DNA of 8,070 bases from an uncultured delta proteobacterium (GTDB lineage Bacteria > Myxococcota > Myxococcia > Myxococcales > Anaeromyxobacteraceae), in assembly GCA_963845515.1 (NCBI GenBank), contig CAWJSR010000004.1, forward strand, positions 1 to 8,070. Reading direction: 5' to 3'. Below the pieces are notes generated by a model. It saw only the letters and a program-made list of their open reading frames with translations, searched no databases and was not told where the DNA came from. Positions 1,472 to 7,363 of this stretch are shown one piece after another (position 1 is the stretch's first letter; each line of letters opens with the position of its first letter). A program made the position numbers and the translations under genes.

Positions 1472-1794
1472 GTGAAGTATCCGCGCCTCCTGCCCAGGTT
1501 CGCCGAGCGCCATCCCCGGGTGCAGGTCGAGGTCCAGGTCGAGAATCGGTTCGTCAACATCGTCGCGGAGGGCGCGGACGCCGGGATCCGCCTCTCCGAG
1601 GCCATCGAACGGGACATGGTGCAGGTCCGCCTCACGCCGCCAGCCCGGTTCGTGGTTGCCGCCGCTCCCTCCTACCTGGCGTGCCGGGGTTCTTCCTGTA
1701 CTTCCCGAGCCGCGCCCAGGTCTCGCCGGCGCTCAGGGCGTTCGTGGACATGGCCCGCGAGCTGGCCGGAAGCTCGAAGGTGCGCGCGCGCTGA
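1472..1794 (+). pseudogene. Remnant of a LysR-type regulator (CrgA/DmlR-like substrate-binding domain), lacking the HTH and with an internal deletion
   Basis: LLPRFAERHPRVQVEV...NIVAEGADAGIRLSEAIERDMVQVRL...FVVAAAPSYLA (1472-1680) abuts, in another frame, the LysR C-terminal motif PGFFLYFPSRAQVSPALRAFVD...* (1681-1794). No N-terminal HTH is present. Confidence 0.85.
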
Positions 1795-1811
1795 GCGGGG
1801 TTCGACCCCGC
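1795..1811. other. Perfect GC hairpin GCGGGG-TTCGA-CCCCGC directly after the LysR remnant stop
   Basis: 6-bp perfect inverted repeat. No T-tract follows, so a terminator role is uncertain. Confidence 0.4.
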
Positions 1812-1895
1812 CGTCGAGGCCCCCCTGCCGGGCCGTCCGTCTTGGGCTGCGAAGCGCGGGACCAAACGACAGATAACACCAGCAGGGAGGATTCC

Positions 1896-1949: not shown

Positions 1950-3100
1950 GCGACCCCCTCACCTCGATCCAGCCTGAGCGGAAGAAGTCGGTGGCCCTGT
2001 CGGGCACCGTCGCGGGCGACACCGCGATCTGCACGGTCGGGCGCAGCGGCAACGACCTCCACTACCGCGGCTACGACATCCACGAGCTCGCGCAGGAGGC
2101 CACGTACGAGGAGGTGGCCCACCTCCTCGTCCACGGCGCCCTCCCCACTGCCCCGCAGCTCGCTGCCTACCGCACGCGGCTGCAGCGGCTCCGCGGCTTG
2201 CCCGGCGCCGTCCGGAGCGCCCTAGAGCACATCCCGGCCGCAGCGCACCCGATGGACGTGCTCAGGACCGGCTGCTCGGTGCTCGGCACCGTCCTGCCGG
2301 AGAAGGAGGGGCACCCGGAGGCCGGCGCGCGCGACATCGCCGACCGGCTCCTCGCCAGCCTCGGGGCGATGCTCCTCTACTGGCACCGCTTCGCCCAGAC
2401 GGGACGGCGGATCGAGGTGGAGACGGAGAACGTTCGATCGCCGCCCACTTCCTCCACTTGCTCCACGGCCGCGCCCCCCTCCGCCGCGCACGCCCGCGCC
2501 CTCGACCGGTCGCTGATCCTCTACGCGGAGCACGAGTTCAACGCCTCGACCTTCGCGAGCCGCGTCGTCGCCGGCACTGGCTCGGACCTCTACTCCGCCG
2601 TCACCGCCGGGATCGGTGCGCTCCGGGGGCCGAAGCACGGGGGCGCGAACGAGGTGGCGATGGAGATCCTCGAGCGCTACGCCAGCCCCGACGAGGCGGA
2701 GGCCGACGTCCGGGCGAGGCTGGCGCGCAAGGAGATCGTCATCGGCTTCGGCCACCCGGTCTACACCGTCTCGGATCCGCGCAGCGCGATCATCAAGGAG
2801 ATCGCGCGCCAGCTCTGCGCCGACGCGGGCGCCCCCACCCTCTTCGCGGTCGCCGAGCGGATCAACGTCGTCATGCGTGAGGTGAAGCGGATGTTCCCGA
2901 ACCTCGACTGGTTCAGCGCGGCGGCCTACCACGCGCTGGGCGTGCCGACGCCGATGTTCACGCCGCTCTTCGTCATCGCGCGGACGGCCGGCTGGTCCGC
3001 TCACGTGCTGGAGCAGCGCCAGGCCGGGAAGATCATCCGGCCGAGCGCCAACTACGTGGGACCGGACGACCGCCCCTACGTCGCCCTCGGGGATCGCTGA
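1946..3100 (+). CDS. prpC: 2-methylcitrate synthase (citrate synthase family)
   Basis: N-terminus [33 protein letters not shown] is characteristic of PrpC. Catalytic motifs [27 protein letters not shown] and [10 protein letters not shown]-terminal [21 protein letters not shown] short compensated frameshift lies at about 2428-2479. Confidence 0.95.
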
Positions 3101-3114
3101 GCCGAGGCCCCGAC

Positions 3115-3251
3115 GTGAGCGCCCAGGCCGCCAACGCTCGCCCCGCCCCCGACCCGGGAGCTGGCGGCGGCCCTCCTCGCCCTCTTCGGCGACCCGGCCC
3201 GGCTCGAGGCGACGCCGGTCAATGCAGCTCGTGGACCTGACGGTCATCTGA
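3115..3251 (+). pseudogene. prpD: 2-methylcitrate dehydratase remnant: N-terminus joined to C-terminus
   Basis: GAGG then GTG 3115. Reads VSAQAANARPAPDP-EL (cf. E. coli PrpD MSAQINNIRPEFDREI), then ALLALFGDPARLEATPVN(E)LVDLTVI* (cf. PrpD end ...LDRARLEQMPVNEYLDLYVI*), allowing single-base indels near 3157 and 3225. It sits right after prpC. Confidence 0.8.
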
Positions 3252-3447
3252 GCCTCACGACCTCTCAAGGCGCCCGGCTCCCGGAGGCCGTGCTCGCGAT
3301 GACGGACGAGTGAGGGGGTGGGCGCCGGCTCACGCGGCGAAAACCTCAGCGGCCGTGCCTACTTCCATGTCGGGGTGAGTCGAGCCCCCGCTCCCCGTGC
3401 GCCAGGGCCAACCCCCGGTTAGAAACCGTTGGTCGCCCCTCGAGCGC

Positions 3448-3453
3448 GGAGGA
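3448..3453 (+). promoter_or_regulatory. Shine-Dalgarno GGAGGA for the TTG start at 3458
   Basis: GGAGGA lies 4 nt upstream of TTG. Confidence 0.65.
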
Positions 3454-3457
3454 CCAC

Positions 3458-3841
3458 TTGCTCGAATACCTCGCCAAGCTCGGCGAACGCATGGAGCGCG
3501 AGAACCGCGACCGCTTCATGGTCGAGGGAAGCCTGCCTGCCGGCACTCGCCGGGTCTCCGTGGCGGGGACGACCGGCTGGCTCTACCCGGTCGTCAACGA
3601 GCAGGGCGACGCGTTCCGCATGTTCCTCTGGTTCGACGGCGCCGCCTACCAGGTGAAGGTCGTCGAGCCGACGCTCGCCTACGCCGACCCCCACTGCTGT
3701 CACCTCTTCCCCGACGCGCGGCTCTGCCTCGGCGGCGACGAGGGTGGCGGCATGCCGACGCTCGACGGCGCGTTCGCGCGGAGCGTGCTCTGGGCGAACG
3801 GCTACGGCGCCTTCGCGCGCACCGGTCGATTCCCGTTCTGA
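3458..3841 (+). CDS. Stand-alone prokaryotic E2/UBC-like protein (127 aa) with candidate catalytic Cys90
   Basis: Strong RBS and GC3-biased codons. A beta-strand-like series (GWLYPV, FRMFLWF, YQVKVVEP) is followed by DPHCCHLFPDARLCL, which has the His/Asn-to-Cys spacing of the UBC motif HPNxxxxGxICL (H82...C90), and then a helix ARSVLWANGY...TGRFP. It is operonic with JAB/E1. Confidence 0.62.
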   Translation: MLEYLAKLGERMERENRDRFMVEGSLPAGTRRVSVAGTTGWLYPVVNEQGDAFRMFLWFDGAAYQVKVVEPTLAYADPHCCHLFPDARLCLGGDEGGGMPTLDGAFARSVLWANGYGAFARTGRFPF

Positions 3842-3853
3842 AGGAGGCACACC

Positions 3854-4051
3854 ATGTCAGACGCCGTCCTCGATCGCGTTCAGTTGCTGCTCCGGGAGAG
3901 CCGCGAAAAGGGTGAGGAGCTTCCGCGCGAGCGCGCGCGGAAGGTCTTCGTCGATCCGAGCGGGCGAATCCGCCTCGGAGACGACGTCCCCGACGCGGAG
4001 GGGCCCGGCCTCTCCGAGATCCACCACGCGGTCTTCGCCGCGCGTGGCTGA
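3854..4051 (+). CDS. Small hypothetical protein (65 aa), candidate conjugated modifier or E1 substrate; C-terminus ...SEIHHAVFAARG
   Basis: AGGAGG at 3842-3847, ATG 3854, GC3-biased codons. The stop overlaps the next gene's GTG. Function is inferred only from context. Confidence 0.75.
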   Translation: MSDAVLDRVQLLLRESREKGEELPRERARKVFVDPSGRIRLGDDVPDAEGPGLSEIHHAVFAARG

Positions 4052-5867
4052 TCCGTCATTCGTCCTCGGCGACTGGGTGCTCGCCGAGCTCGAGCGCGAG
4101 CTCGCGGCGCAGCCGCCGGAGCGCGGCGGCGCCCTCCTCGGTCCCAGGCTCCGGCCGGCCGTCACCCGCTTCGTCCCCGATCCGGACGCCGTGCGCAGCG
4201 GTGTGAGCTGGGCCCCGTCCCGCGCCCTCGACGCCGCGGTGAAGGCGCTGGAGGGATCCGAAGGACTCGAGCTCAAGGGGGTCGTCCACTCGCACCCCCG
4301 GGGCTTCGGCGAGCCCTCGAACCAGGACGTTCGCGAGCTGGCGCGCGGCCTCGCGATCAACGGCCACATGCCCTGCTACCTTGCCCCCATCGTGACGCCG
4401 GGGGTGGCTGGGTCGCTCGCTGCGCACGAGCTCCCTCTCGCGTCGGGCAGGCTCTCGTGCTTCGCCGCGTGGCGGGGACCGGCGGAGGGCGCCGTCGTCC
4501 GACCTCTCCGGCCGCGCCTCCTGCCGCTCTCTCGCGACCTGTCGCGGCTTGCGCGCGACCTCGGCGCGCCGACGCCGGCGCTGCTCGACGTGGACGCGGG
4601 CGCCGGGATCGCGCCGGGGGGCCGGCTCTCCCTGCCGGGAGGGGTGGAGCTGCTCGTGATCGCCGGCGACGGCTATCCGGCCCTTCCGCCGCTCCTGTTC
4701 CTCACGCTCGACGGAGAGACGGAGCAGCTCCAGACTTCCTGGCGCGTGGACGTGCCGGAGGAGGAACGGCTCGTTCGCGCGGCCCGCGAGGCGTTGGTGC
4801 CGCCGGGGCCGTACCGCCGGAGCTACGGGCCGCGCGCAGGCCCCGCGCTCACGCGCGACCCGGCGCGCGCCGCCCTCGCCGGCTGGGAGCCGCGCCTCTC
4901 GGGGGAGGACCCGGACGCGACGGCCGCGGCGCTCCGGGACGCGCTGCTCGAGCGCGGCGCGGGGTTGCTGGCGCCCTCGCTCCGCGAGCGGACGGTGCTG
5001 GTCGCCGGCCTCGGGTCGGTCGGGTCGTACGTCGCGGAGCAGCTCGCGCGCAGCGGCGTGGGCGGCCTCACGCTCCTCGACCCGGAGCCGGTCGAGGCGG
5101 CGAACCTCTCGCGGACGGTCTACGGTGCCGCCGACGTGGACCGCCCGAAGACCGAGGCGCTCGCGCGGCGCCTCCTCTCCGCGGTGCCGTCGCTCCGGCT
5201 AGGTCTCCACCCCTCCCGCATCGAGGACCTCGCCCCCGCCGAGCTCGACGCCCTCGTGCGCGGCGTCGACCTGGTGGTGGGCGCCACCGACGATCCCGCC
5301 GGACAGCGCGCGCTCGACCGGTTCGCCTACGCGCGAGGTCGGCCCGCGGTCTTCGTCGGGCTCTACGCCGGGGCGCAGGGCGGCGAGGTGATCCTCACCG
5401 TCCCCGAGCGCACGCCCTGCTTCCTCTGCGCCACTCGCGCGCGCCACGCGGCGGAGCGGACCGCGGGGCGCGTGGAGCGCGAGACCGACTACGGCTCCGG
5501 GAGGCTCGCCGGCGAGCCGGCGCTGGGCGCCGACATCCAGCACGTGGCGAGCGCGGCCGTGAAGCTCGCCCTCTCGCTCCTCCTGCCAGGCGGCAAGGTG
5601 GGCGCGCTCGCCGAGGGAGCCGTGGCGGAGGGCACGCCCTACCTCACGCTCTCCACCGTGGCACGCTACTGGTTCTACCCGGGGATCTTCGGGGACGTGC
5701 CTGGGCAGGGCGCCTACCAGGCGGTCTGGCTCTCACCGGTGCGCAGCGCCGACTGCCCGGTGTGCGGCGACCCGGCCGGGCGGATTGAGCCCCTGACCGT
5801 CCCGCTGCGCGCGCCGACCCGCGAGGAGCTGGCGGCCTCGGTCCGGGGGGAGGAGGGAGGCGGCTGA
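4044..5867 (+). CDS. JAB/Mov34 metalloprotease + E2/RWD-like + ThiF/E1 adenylation fusion protein (~607 aa)
   Basis: Likely start GTG 4044. JAMM motif E(4119)...H-S-H(4287-4295)-x7-S(4317)-x2-D(4326). Central ELLVIAGDGYPALPPLLFL carries YPxxPP (4674). ThiF motifs GLGSVGS (5007), DPEPVEAANLSR (5079), PKTEAL and GATDD, plus Zn pairs CFLC (5418-5429) and CPVC (5754-5765). Confidence 0.9.
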   Translation: MADPSFVLGDWVLAELERELAAQPPERGGALLGPRLRPAVTRFVPDPDAVRSGVSWAPSRALDAAVKALEGSEGLELKGVVHSHPRGFGEPSNQDVRELARGLAINGHMPCYLAPIVTPGVAGSLAAHELPLASGRLSCFAAWRGPAEGAVVRPLRPRLLPLSRDLSRLARDLGAPTPALLDVDAGAGIAPGGRLSLPGGVELLVIAGDGYPALPPLLFLTLDGETEQLQTSWRVDVPEEERLVRAAREALVPPGPYRRSYGPRAGPALTRDPARAALAGWEPRLSGEDPDATAAALRDALLERGAGLLAPSLRERTVLVAGLGSVGSYVAEQLARSGVGGLTLLDPEPVEAANLSRTVYGAADVDRPKTEALARRLLSAVPSLRLGLHPSRIEDLAPAELDALVRGVDLVVGATDDPAGQRALDRFAYARGRPAVFVGLYAGAQGGEVILTVPERTPCFLCATRARHAAERTAGRVERETDYGSGRLAGEPALGADIQHVASAAVKLALSLLLPGGKVGALAEGAVAEGTPYLTLSTVARYWFYPGIFGDVPGQGAYQAVWLSPVRSADCPVCGDPAGRIEPLTVPLRAPTREELAASVRGEEGGG

Positions 5868-5892
5868 GGCGGGCCGGGCGTCCAGGACCGGA

Positions 5893-5901
5893 TGCTATAG
5901 T
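5893..5901 (+). promoter_or_regulatory. Candidate extended -10 promoter TG-c-TATAGT
   Basis: AT-rich near-consensus TGnTATAAT element in a very GC-rich background, 6 nt before GTG 5908. No -35 is visible. Confidence 0.5.
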
Positions 5902-5907
5902 CGCGAG

Positions 5908-6370
5908 GTGGCCGCCTTGAAGGTATCCGCGCCCGACGCTCGCCGCCTTCGGTGCTCCCCTGCCGGTGACCCCGCGCATGGAGATGGCGCTCGAGGAGGC
6001 CGTCGCCCGCGCCCTCGTCGCTGCCAGAAGCGACCCCACGTTGGCCCTGGTCGTCCCCGTCGTCCTGCTCGACAACGCCTTCGACGTTGAGCTGCTCCTG
6101 AAGGCGGCCCGCGCCCGAAAGGTTCTTCCCGAGCTCGGCATGTTCCTCGCGCTCAGCGCCCGGGTTGGGCGGCGCCCGGCGCTTGCGAAGCTGGCACTGC
6201 GGCTGCCGCGGCACACGGGAAGGCCGAAGTACTATCCGAAGCCTTTCGGCGGCCGGTTCGGCCGGGCGCTCGCCGACGCGAACACGCCGCCGGTCGTGGC
6301 GGCCTGGGGCTTCCGGATGAACGAGACGGAGGCCGACCTCAAGGGTTTCGTGGAGAAGCACCTTGGCTGA
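5908..6370 (+). CDS. Hypothetical protein, probable partner/antitoxin of the downstream nucleotidyltransferase; probable frameshift near 5933
   Basis: ORF 5966-6370 extends upstream in frame as TLAAFGAPLPV. Removing one C at about 5932-5934 joins it to GTG 5908/TTG 5917. Its stop overlaps the TTG start of the next gene by 8 nt. Confidence 0.6.
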
Positions 6371-6946
6371 GCTCAAGCCCGCGAGCTTCTGGGCCCGGCT
6401 CCTGAAGCTCGTGGACGACGAGCTCACCGAGCCGCACGACCTCATCATCGTCGGCGGTGCCGCCATCGGCCTCCGGTACGCTGCGACGCACCTGACCTCG
6501 GATTTCGACAGCGTCACGTCCTCGACGGACCGAACGCTCTGGGCCGCCTTCGAGCGTGCCGGCGTCGTGCTGCAGCAGGAACAGGGGCTGCGGCGGCCTC
6601 CAAAGGTCAGCGCCATCGGCGTCTCCTTCGAGCCGCCCGAGGACTGGGAGCGCCGGCTCCGAAAGGTCCCGCTGCTGCTCCGCCGCCTCCGAGTCTACGT
6701 TCCCGAGCGCCACGACCTCGCGCTCTCCAAGGTCGCCCGCGGCCTCTCGCGCGACTTTGCTGCGCTGAAAGCGATGCACCAGGCGAGCCCTTTCGACTGC
6801 GCACGCTCGTCGAGCGCTACGAGGAAGCCCGCCGCGTCCGCGTCGGCGACAACCGGCGCTTCAAGGCGAACTTCCTGGCGCTGGTCGCGGAGCTCTTCGG
6901 CGAGGAGGAGGCCGAGCGAGTCGAGCCGGCGCTTCGGGCGGACTGA
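6363..6946 (+). CDS. DUF6036/AbiEii-like nucleotidyltransferase, one frameshift near 6797
   Basis: Motifs LIIVGGAAIGL...HLTSDFD (GG...TxDxD), PEDWERR and DLALSKVARG..RD. The C-terminus continues in the shifted frame as LRTLVERYEE...NFLALVAELFGEEEAERVEPALRAD* (TGA 6944-6946). Confidence 0.75.
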
Positions 6947-6958
6947 CGGCGAGTGCAC

Positions 6959-7363
6959 ATGCGGACTGCGGCAACCCTCCTCGGACTCCTGCTCGCCATC
7001 ACTCCGGCCCTGGCTGGCGACACGCCCCGGCGCGACAAGGGCATCTCGATGCACATGCTGCCCAAGCAAGTCGCCGACATGGGCGGCAGGCGCTGGGGCC
7101 TGGTCGTGACGTACGCCGACTACCTGATGCCCGAGCCAGCGGAGCCGGTGCTCCAGTCGGCCACCGAAGTCGTCGCATTTGCCAGAAAGCAGGACCCCAA
7201 GGTCCAGGCGAACGGCATCTGGATCGTCACAACCCATCCCGACGCATACTCCGACATGGAGAAGAGGGTTCTCGATGACGTCAAGGCGTTCTGCCGCAGG
7301 GAGCGCATCGCCCTCTTCATCGCCCGAGGATCCGAGCTGCCCAGTGGCTGGCAACGTTACTAG
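6959..7363 (+). CDS. Secreted hypothetical protein
   Basis: Signal peptide MRTAATLLGLLLAITPALA|GD with an AxA cleavage site; GC3-biased ORF ending at TAG 7361-7363. Confidence 0.75.
   Translation: MRTAATLLGLLLAITPALAGDTPRRDKGISMHMLPKQVADMGGRRWGLVVTYADYLMPEPAEPVLQSATEVVAFARKQDPKVQANGIWIVTTHPDAYSDMEKRVLDDVKAFCRRERIALFIARGSELPSGWQRY

Follow-up and report, generated by a model that had tools for sequence, protein, structure and literature searches.

No known systems stand closer to eukaryotic ubiquitination than the bacterial ones that combine an activating enzyme (E1), a conjugating enzyme (E2) and a JAB peptidase, namely type II cyclic oligonucleotide-based antiphage signaling systems (CBASS), Bil and Bub, and ideas on how such cascades evolved have shifted with every one that was newly characterized. 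Here, we describe a three-gene locus of this kind on an 8,070-bp contig, analyzed over its whole length (hereafter, the window), from an Anaeromyxobacteraceae genome bin (88% complete, ≈70% GC). The three co-directional, tightly packed genes span positions 3458–5867 (+) and encode an E2-like protein of 127 residues, a protein of 65 residues, and a fusion of a JAB domain, a domain with the motif YPALPP and a ThiF-type E1. The initial annotation of this sequence had proposed such a module at about these coordinates, and every motif that it listed is present in the translations. On balance, we favor the view that the three genes constitute a self-contained, ubiquitination-like conjugation cascade in which the 65-residue protein would serve as the tag.

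Type I Bub (formerly 6E.1/DUF6527; row 6e of Iyer et al. 2006) is described as a JAB–E1 fusion, BubCD, with a Ubl–E2 fusion (Ubl, ubiquitin-like protein), BubAB, and a third protein, BubE (10.1101/2024.11.21.623953). In that preprint's account, BubCD has no cysteine in the crossover loop and one invariant tyrosine, and forms a Ubl~Tyr oxyester (10.1101/2024.11.21.623953). JAB–E1 fusions had been listed already by Iyer et al. 2006 (PMC1779556), whose operon rows place Anaeromyxobacter only in row 4b, with a ThiS/MoaD, JAB and E1–rhodanese operon, and not in rows 6a–6e. The idea that a protease and an E1 in one chain are unprecedented, also put forward in the initial annotation, is thus overturned by the fusions described in both sources. 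What is new is the predicted 65-residue modifier, which matches no family, and the pairing of an E1 of the presumptive Tyr type with an E2 of the Cys type; the JAB–E1 fusion as such was known already. The gene family is widespread and is undescribed in the libraries and literature that we searched; the literature search, to which operon listings in supplementary tables of preprints did not belong, found no description of this architecture.

Comparison with Described Systems

In architecture, the locus is nearest to type I Bub. Both have a JAB–E1 fusion whose E1 lacks a crossover-loop Cys and has an invariant Tyr there; in relatives of the locus the predicted modifier is fused to the E2 or occurs in tandem, and the JAB domain is expected to cut the precursor, as in Bub. 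Neither has an E3 ligase, and the modifiers of both may bear extra N-terminal domains. However, the E2 family of the window has a conserved Cys and a conserved His, whereas the Bub E2 uses Ser, and its predicted modifier ends in Ala and is not recognizably a β-grasp protein, whereas the Bub Ubl is a β-grasp protein ending in Gly. The DUF6527/BubE gene, obligatory in Bub, was not found: PF20137 (BubE) matched none of the window open reading frames (ORFs), 128 neighbors in related Anaeromyxobacteraceae loci, 43 ORFs of actinobacterial loci or 22 representatives of recurrent metagenome neighbors. Furthermore, the E2 and modifier of the window are unfused products of separate genes, and Pfam detected no CapW or CapH/CapP-type regulator near the window or the related Anaeromyxobacteraceae loci. 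The fusion protein resembles BubCD only marginally (64 residues at E = 5e-4), and it carries an extra, predicted RWD/UEV-like domain without Cys between JAB and E1, of which there is none in the preprint's description of BubCD (10.1101/2024.11.21.623953).

By E2 structure and by the hidden Markov model (HMM) matches of its E1, the locus is nearest to type II CBASS. The modeled E2 resembles the CBASS E2 and the E2 of Cap2 (scores below), the E1 core matches the Cap2 models of PADLOC, and a predicted UBC-like domain immediately precedes the E1, in the manner of Cap2. The tails of CD-NTases illustrate that the C-terminus of a substrate need not be Gly. On the other hand, Pfam and PADLOC found no CD-NTase, effector, metallo-β-lactamase (MBL) or DUF6527 gene in the window or its relatives, which bears out the initial annotation as to the first two. 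The E1-fused, predicted UBC-like domain lacks Cys and the putative active E2 is separate, whereas Cap2 has cysteines in both modules; the JAB domain is fused to the E1, in contrast to the separate Cap3; the E1 has no catalytic Cys; and the substrate would be a dedicated 65-residue protein rather than a CD-NTase.

Bil (BilABCD, formerly 6C or CEHH) comprises the same activities of modifier, E2, JAB and E1, with a Cys thioester-type E2. Its E1, as the preprint defines Bil (10.1101/2024.11.21.623953), is a multidomain protein (IAD–AAD–CYS), whereas that of the window has one ThiF-type domain only and lacks the Cys; BilA is a β-grasp Ubl, BilC is a separate JAB protein, and the PADLOC Bil proteins were not matched by the E2 or modifier of the window. 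The 6A-MBL systems (a Cap2_3 triple fusion with an MBL) unite E2-fold, E1 and JAB modules in one protein, but in the order E2–E1–JAB according to row 6a of Iyer et al. 2006 (PMC1779556), as opposed to JAB–RWD–E1. They have no separate modifier, the window has no MBL gene, and the model NF058523 (6A-MBL Cap2_3) matched the E1 core only, with 69.8 bits against a cut-off of 320. The sulfur-carrier systems (ThiS/MoaD, QbsE/QbsD, CysO/Mec), as laid out in rows 4a–4d of Iyer et al. 2006, have a small tailed carrier, JAB trimming and a ThiF/MoeB-like E1 without a catalytic-Cys domain. They differ in that their E1s bear rhodanese domains, their β-grasp carriers end in GG, and they occur with sulfur or cofactor genes and no E2, whereas our locus has no rhodanese, an Ala end, and neighbors that are metabolic but not sulfur-related. 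Pupylation (Pup/PafA/Dop) employs a non-β-grasp tag of ≈64 residues, a glutamine-synthetase-like ligase and side-chain carboxylate chemistry. The likeness here is functional only, residing in the similar tag size and in AAA+ ATPase genes beside the module in some relatives; the proteins and the chemistry are unrelated.

The E2-Like Protein

The 127-residue protein carries the motif H82-LFPDARL-C90, which has the form H-x7-C. Homology searches found 110 homologues, and a profile search of 1.84 billion cluster representatives returned 226 of these at E ≤ 1e-3. The motif is strongly conserved: of 124 diverse sequences of the E2-like family, 121 keep H82 and 118 keep C90. Neither this protein nor the 65-residue protein was matched by Pfam, PADLOC or NCBIfam (June 2026), and profile searches of PDB sequences gave chance-level rows or none for both, in agreement with the initial annotation, which had placed the architecture outside the described systems; the small protein matched no Ubl family either.

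A fold model was made of P0314, a metagenomic protein in which tag and E2 form a single chain and whose E2 part is 49% identical to that of the window. The underlying alignment of 95 rows included the E2-like and 65-residue proteins of the window and their homologues. The model had a mean predicted local distance difference test score (pLDDT) of 90.1, and its E2 part consisted of a helix (79–94), four strands, a loop with H152 and C160, and a long helix (172–192), which is the succession of helix, four-stranded antiparallel sheet, His...Cys loop and helix of the UBC fold. When the model was compared with the PDB by Foldseek, most of the entries listed, including the best, were E2/UBC enzymes (Rad6, Ube2W, Ubc9, UFC1 and a CBASS E2), with weak E-values (best, 9.6e-3) and probabilities of 0.96–1.0. 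A VIA search, which is independent of Foldseek, ranked CBASS E2 8hsb_B (Z 8.4, root mean square deviation (rmsd) 5.2, 120 aligned) and Cap2 7to3_A (Z 8.1) ahead of UFC1 (Z 8.0), the Tsg101 UEV domain and BubB (Z 7.0). The best BFVD match of the E2 part was a phage "Type II CBASS E2" protein (E = 2.4e-3). We conclude from the model that the family of the 127-residue protein has the UBC fold, a point on which the initial annotation had made its proposal depend. That the E2 lacks sequence similarity of a BubB-like or Cap2-like kind is no evidence of a separate origin, and the modeled structure would place it among those proteins.

The Predicted Modifier

We found 80 homologues of the 65-residue protein. 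In relatives, one to three tandem copies of its domain, counted by eye (one or two per protein by HMM), are fused ahead of the E2 domain, and many matches to the E2 profile were proteins of 180–360 residues with the E2 domain at the C-terminus. The small protein aligned with the N-terminal domain of the fused relatives with an hhalign probability of 98.8% (E = 4.7e-17, 60 columns), and the wide profile A5 also matched the separate small gene beside the E2 gene in Anaeromyxobacteraceae genomes, with E-values down to 3.9e-13. A protein-atlas search with the small protein of the window and one homologue yielded neither a usable match nor a model of the structure.

The conserved core of the protein ends in V60-F61-A62 (A62 codon, 4037–4039), and residues 63–65, ARG, form a variable tail in the window. 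Eight of the 19 intact Anaeromyxobacteraceae copies stop at VFA, and the other 11 have 2–12 unconserved extra residues. The FA end recurs in every one of the 19 distinct standalone metagenome copies, with 0–15 variable residues after it; taking both sets together, 10 of 38 standalone copies terminate exactly at FA. In the fused forms, the end of the core directly borders the next copy or the E2 helix, and the last residue at 29 informative junctions was Ala (20), Tyr (5), His (3) or Phe (1). Dispensable tails, tandem repeats or a fused enzyme after a conserved C-terminus are the hallmark of a precursor that a dedicated peptidase cleaves. Polyubiquitin carries this hallmark. It is present also in the BubAB Ubl–E2 fusion, which the preprint describes as cleaved by the JAB domain of BubCD (10.1101/2024.11.21.623953). 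The initial annotation had seen no recognizable Ubl, only a 65-residue protein. That view needs correcting; the 65-residue protein itself reads as the predicted modifier, in view of the E2 fusions, the hhalign match and the FA end.

Some of the tag–E2 proteins have additional domains. An N-terminal DnaJ J-domain was present in loci L050, L051 and L054 (and in protein P0331), and protein P0415 has an N-terminal phage Mu-F/SPP1 gp7-like head-morphogenesis domain. Both kinds of domain would remain on the tag after cleavage.

The JAB–RWD–E1 Fusion Protein

Pfam matched the fusion protein with Prok-JAB (E = 6.8e-9, above the curated cut-off) and ThiF (E = 2.9e-31) and had no match for residues ≈110–300. 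Conservation was assessed in 43 distinct full-length JAB–RWD–E1 proteins, which fall into 18 groups below 60% identity. All five JAMM residues (E26, H82, H84, S92 and D95) are kept in 43 of 43.

The C-terminal limit of the JAB domain was placed by means of the alignment and a model of residues 150–300 (window positions 4491–4943; pLDDT 92.5). For the middle domain, VIA gave the Tsg101 UEV domain (Z 7.5, rmsd 3.5, 97 aligned), the Knl1 RWD domain (6.4), the E2 of Cap2 (6.0), Ubc9 (5.8) and BubB (5.4), at a level of Z that unrelated α+β folds also reach (actin-capping protein, 7.7), and Foldseek was weak (Tsg101 UEV, probability 0.84). The YPALPP motif occupies residues 211–216, with P212 and P216 kept in 42 and Y211 in 38 of the 43 proteins, and the domain has no conserved Cys or His. 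With moderate confidence, the model points to a UBC/RWD/UEV-like domain.

The E1 domain has the motifs GLGSVG (322–327), D346, R357, K369, D416, C459-x-x-C462 and C571-x-x-C574; G322, G324, G327, the four D/R/K residues and the four Cys are all kept in 42 of 43 proteins. A profile of this domain matched MoeB (7.3e-21), UBA5 (3.7e-20) and Cap2 (7.3e-17) in the PDB. Both PADLOC and NCBIfam matched the fusion over the E1 core only; the best PADLOC models were of the Cap2 "E1-E2" type, and the ThiF/MoeB equivalogs of NCBIfam fell far below their cut-offs. The alignment with MoeB and UBA5 spans the ATP-binding residues and stops at the first CxxC, so that the crossover loop comes after this CxxC. 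There, the motif [D/N]-Y-G is conserved (D482-Y483 in the window), with Y483 in 42 of 43 and a gap in the remaining protein. A Cys is found in the loop in only 1 of 43; the conserved cysteines of the E1 are the four zinc ligands, and the E1 is a single ThiF domain of ≈300 residues without an inserted Cys domain. Y483 sits 21 residues past the CxxC, equal to the spacing from C229, which we take to be the CxxC position in UBA5, to C250. The position of C250 is that given in the preprint (10.1101/2024.11.21.623953).

Linkage, Distribution and Genomic Context

The order E2, small gene, JAB–E1 was the same in 20 of 20 Anaeromyxobacteraceae loci examined, one of which is truncated by a contig end and another of which, a copy from the same bin, has a frameshifted small gene. 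Farther afield, we examined 85 loci (five Actinomycetota genomes and 80 metagenome contigs, 35–78% GC), and a JAB–RWD–E1 homologue adjoins the E2 gene in 79 of them; the six exceptions have ≤317 bp downstream. The linkage is thus obligate, and the conservation of the trio that the initial annotation had called for was found. Within it the arrangement is permuted, with fused tag–E2 genes, tag genes before or after the E2 gene, and tandem E2 paralogues. In eight loci the third gene is split, with JAB–RWD upstream and E1 downstream. Two E2-like paralogues lie in tandem past the tag gene at L100:4921-5747, L116:4869-5651 and L117:245-1071.

The E2 family occurs in 31 of 92 Anaeromyxobacteraceae genomes (17 of 54 high-quality ones) and in 5 of 11 genera, with a module identity of 50–75% across genera. 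Among 401 sampled Myxococcota genomes with a completeness of at least 80%, it was confined to Anaeromyxobacteraceae (23/67 vs 0/333), and the module is also present in Actinomycetota and many metagenome lineages. The flanks vary by locus and include methylcitrate cycle genes, acetate kinase/Pta, succinate dehydrogenase, an FMN reductase, a hemerythrin–PAS protein and sensor kinases; no further gene is conserved with the module across related loci. We scanned 128 neighboring proteins from 18 related Anaeromyxobacteraceae loci with PADLOC and Pfam (L015 was left out of both scans). Five matched PADLOC at E ≤ 1e-10, all through generic domains (sigma-54 activators, radical SAM, a cold-shock protein and a DEAD-box helicase), and none of the 128 was a mobile-element gene by Pfam. 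A tblastn search with P0317 against 50,697 phage and 72,556 plasmid records gave no match, and a scan of viral contigs with alignment A8 gave 70 pattern matches of which 0 were confirmed; each used a single query, which distant members could escape. The module is autonomous and patchily spread and, in Anaeromyxobacteraceae, lies outside defense islands.

Other genes adjoin the module in some of the more distant loci. A Clp-type AAA_2 ATPase gene lies directly upstream at L083:121-1470 and L097:138-1427, and this ATPase also matches the E2 HMM. Another ATPase gene, for a double-AAA protein (AAA + AAA_lid_6), immediately follows the module in 17 related loci (L112:2953-5565 and 16 others), and a CHAT-iSTAND gene adjoins the module in five metagenome loci (L038:9741-11588 and four related). 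In three of the five actinobacterial loci, an ORF of 256–321 residues with no Pfam match lies directly upstream of the tag–E2 gene (L033:5959-6921, L035:5979-6746 and L036:5873-6643).

Proposed Cascade and Alternatives

In the cascade that we favor, the JAB domain would trim the residues past the V-F-A end of the tag, which are ARG in the window and, in relatives, either a further tag copy or the fused E2 domain. The ThiF-type E1 would use ATP to adenylate the exposed carboxylate of the C-terminal Ala. Because the crossover loop has no Cys and an invariant Tyr, as in BubCD with its Ubl~Tyr oxyester, we propose that the activated tag passes on either through an oxyester at Y483 or straight from the adenylate, since the E1 is without a catalytic Cys. 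Cys90 of the separate E2 would then take the tag as a thioester and, with no E3 encoded, the E2 itself would move it onto amino groups of target proteins. The Cys-less RWD/UEV-like domain that separates JAB from E1 is probably a docking site for the E2 or the tag, a role that would be like that of the E2 module of Cap2 or of the UFD of canonical E1s. The analysis shows the identities of the domains, the conservation of their motifs, the fusion and permutation of the genes and their obligate linkage; the chemistry at each stage, the place where the tag is processed, the function of Y483 and the choice of targets are inferred.

Several observations weigh against this cascade. The E1 domain is nearest in sequence to MoeB/ThiF (ThiF/MoeB, 1.5e-15), which do not conjugate proteins. 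To our knowledge, the E1 enzymes studied so far conjugate β-grasp proteins or the tails of larger enzymes, whereas the tag domain in the P0314 model is made up of one helix and three short strands followed by an extended tail. The β-grasp order is β-β-α-β-β; that of the tag, as seen within the fused model, appears to be different. The tag does not end in Gly, and Tyr, His or Phe, found at 9 of the 29 fused junctions, is unusual in an E1 substrate; with such mixed junction residues, the exact site of cleavage or activation on the tag is uncertain. The model behind the E2 fold was built for a relative with 49% identity instead of the window's own protein, and the VIA scores of Z 7–8.4 are middling for that tool, their weight coming from the fact that most rows, including the best, are E2, UEV or RWD proteins. 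No target, E3 or effector gene is encoded and, for every member of the family, the cascade is read from sequences and models. A complex prediction for the E1 (residues 296–607) with the small protein gave an ipSAE of 0.01 in two runs without controls, which is uninformative either way.

It could be that no protein is tagged at all and that the E1 activates the small protein for sulfur transfer, as a thiocarboxylate of the ThiS/MoaD/QbsE kind, or for chemistry like that of ribosomally synthesized and post-translationally modified peptides (RiPPs; MccB/PaaA), with the E2-like protein as an accessory. The resemblance of the E1 to MoeB and ThiF is in keeping with this, as are its matches to MccB and PaaA, its lack of a catalytic Cys and the C-terminal residue of the tag, which is other than Gly; trimming of a carrier tail by JAB is known from the sulfur-carrier operons in rows 4a–4d of Iyer et al. 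2006 (PMC1779556). We nevertheless consider it improbable. A rhodanese domain is absent, the zinc site accounts for the four conserved cysteines of the E1, and no sulfur, cofactor, siderophore or transporter genes are found in the window or its relatives, so that the clustering with sulfur-transfer or cofactor genes that would have spoken against the initial annotation was not observed. An E2-fold protein with a conserved His (121/124) and Cys (118/124) would have no role in those pathways, and tandem tag repeats fused to an E2 resemble polyubiquitin and BubAB rather than sulfur carriers. Slimmer still are the chances that the small protein is an adaptor or regulator and that the cascade conjugates some other substrate, such as its own E2 or a protein encoded elsewhere, in the way that Cap2 conjugates its CD-NTase. 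In keeping with such a role are the lack of support for binding of tag and E1 and the absence of a recognizable β-grasp fold, but the strict C-terminal motif, the variable tails and the fusions to tandem repeats and E2 at that very motif suit a processed, C-terminally activated substrate, and no other gene is conserved with the module.

If the conjugation cascade is accepted, its biological role has to be considered, and our expectations are divided: tagging in stress or proteostasis takes the largest share, antiphage defense a lesser one, and other roles the smallest. A pupylation-like role in cellular proteostasis, in which chaperones or AAA+ unfoldases would receive the tagged proteins, is a serious candidate that stops short of an even chance. 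Three separate associations with chaperones or unfoldases in relatives are in its favor (the J-domain fusion, the upstream Clp-type AAA_2 gene in L083 and L097, and the downstream double-AAA gene in 17 loci), and the module in Anaeromyxobacteraceae sits amid central-metabolism and sensor genes, with an identity across genera that would fit long residence in the lineage. None of these partners, however, is present in the window or in 19 related Anaeromyxobacteraceae loci, the 17 lake loci are close relatives and amount to about one observation, and two thirds of the Anaeromyxobacteraceae genomes lack the module, including some that are 98–100% complete; hence, it is not essential. Defense like that of type II CBASS, Bil and (as suspected) Bub, in which infection would lead to attachment of the tag to phage or host proteins, is possible and would suit the patchy distribution within the family and the Myxococcota sample, the presence nonetheless in Actinomycetota and many metagenome lineages, the different genomic locations in relatives, the CHAT-iSTAND gene in five loci, and the CBASS components that head the structural and HMM matches of the E2 and E1. 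All characterized bacterial E1–E2–JAB systems are linked to defense in the preprint's account, but phage protection has, by the same account, not been demonstrated even for Bub (10.1101/2024.11.21.623953). Against defense, none of the 128 neighbors in 18 loci is a recognizable defense or mobile gene beyond the five generic PADLOC matches, CapW and CapH/CapP-type regulators were not found nearby, and the single-query phage, plasmid and viral-contig searches gave nothing. The initial annotation had left the choice between conjugation and defense open; the reading as an uncharacterized conjugation system holds up, whereas defense lacks contextual support in Anaeromyxobacteraceae.

Beyond the single locus, one may ask whether these genes represent a cascade family, widespread in Myxococcota, Actinomycetota and uncultured lineages, in which a non-β-grasp tag of ≈55 residues is activated at an Ala or aromatic end and moves from a Tyr oxyester to a Cys thioester, serving as a resident proteostasis or regulatory tag in Anaeromyxobacter-type lineages. 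We hold this combined reading to be rather unlikely, but its consequences would be considerable. E1–E2 machinery would not be bound to the ubiquitin fold, since a modifier that is unrecognized by sequence libraries and non-β-grasp by predicted secondary structure would uncouple E1/E2 chemistry from that fold. An E1 of the Tyr type working with an E2 of the Cys type would be a natural intermediate between the all-oxyester Bub and the thioester pathways, and a conjugation module among housekeeping genes rather than in defense islands, as in this one lineage, raises the question of whether bacteria tag proteins outside immunity. With three genes in 2.4 kb the system is compact, and its presence in cultured Anaeromyxobacter strains makes it directly testable.

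Gene Layout and Neighboring Sequence

The features of the three genes are listed in Table 1. The fusion gene most likely starts at GTG 4044, yielding 607 residues and an 8-nt overlap with the stop of the small gene. An alternative start at GTG 3744 (listed ORF 3744–5867, 707 residues) was rejected: its frame overlaps both upstream genes, and homologues begin at the position of GTG 4044. The G+C content at third codon positions is 0.90–0.93 in the three frames, with 0.93 for the E2-like gene. A consensus scan for promoters and terminators over 3050–6100 found nothing, as is expected at 72% GC.

Table 1. Features of the E2, modifier and JAB–RWD–E1 genes in the window.
Feature	Position	Strand	Basis or remark
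Ribosome-binding site GGAGG of the E2-like gene	3448..3452	+	Read from sequence; 5 nt ahead of TTG 3458
E2-like protein (UBC fold, from model), 127 aa	3458..3841	+	ORF, TTG start
His82 codon	3701–3703	+	E2-like gene
Predicted catalytic Cys90 codon	3725–3727	+	E2-like gene
Ribosome-binding site AAGGAGG of the small gene	3841..3847	+	Read from sequence; 6 nt ahead of ATG 3854
Predicted modifier (tag) protein, 65 aa	3854..4051	+	ATG start; 12 nt past the E2-like stop
JAB/JAMM metallopeptidase domain, fusion residues 1–158	4044..4517	+	Pfam Prok-JAB
JAMM codons E26; H82-S-H84; S92; D95	4119–4121; 4287–4295; 4317–4319; 4326–4328	+	
Predicted Cys-less UBC/RWD/UEV-like domain, residues ≈159–255	4518..4808	+	Model; YPALPP at 4674–4691
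ThiF/MoeB-type E1 adenylation domain, residues 300–607 plus stop	4941..5867	+	Pfam ThiF
E1 motif sites GxGxxG; Zn CxxC (two); Y483	5007–5024; 5418–5429 and 5754–5765; 5490–5492	+	

The genome bin contains a second copy of the trio on another contig, G000:C5 (L013:4707-7234, corresponding to window positions 3320–5847 at ≈97.9% identity). Its small gene is frameshifted past ...KVFV, and beyond the stop of the JAB–E1 gene its flanks are wholly different. This copy may stem from a strain variant binned together with the genome, from genuine duplication or from misassembly. What the window lacks relative to C5 is most of a PEP-mutase/methylisocitrate-lyase-like gene and nearly the whole of a PrpD gene, which flank the citrate synthase gene; only remnants of ≈90 bp align (window 1477–1895 and 3163–3251).

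Downstream of the trio, an ORF of 134 residues (5966–6370) with no family match overlaps by 8 nt a DUF6036 nucleotidyltransferase ORF (6363–7109; Pfam E = 5.7e-14 over residues 22–137 of 248), the frame of which in turn overlaps the next ORF (6953–7363). The two genes were considered as a fourth part or effector of the system and were rejected, since neither the C5 copy nor any other locus has them. They may make up a small accessory module of two genes.

Upstream of the E2-like gene, some loci share an element, GGGGCGCTGCGCC, followed ≈20–30 nt on by a GAACTCAT-like sequence, 40–90 nt ahead of the start codon. This type of element was found in L019, L021, L022, L025 and L030, and similar ones in L024, L026 and L027; the window and its closest relatives carry a GGTTAGAAACC- or GGTAGAA-like sequence upstream of the gene instead. 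These elements may be lineage-specific promoters or operator sites.

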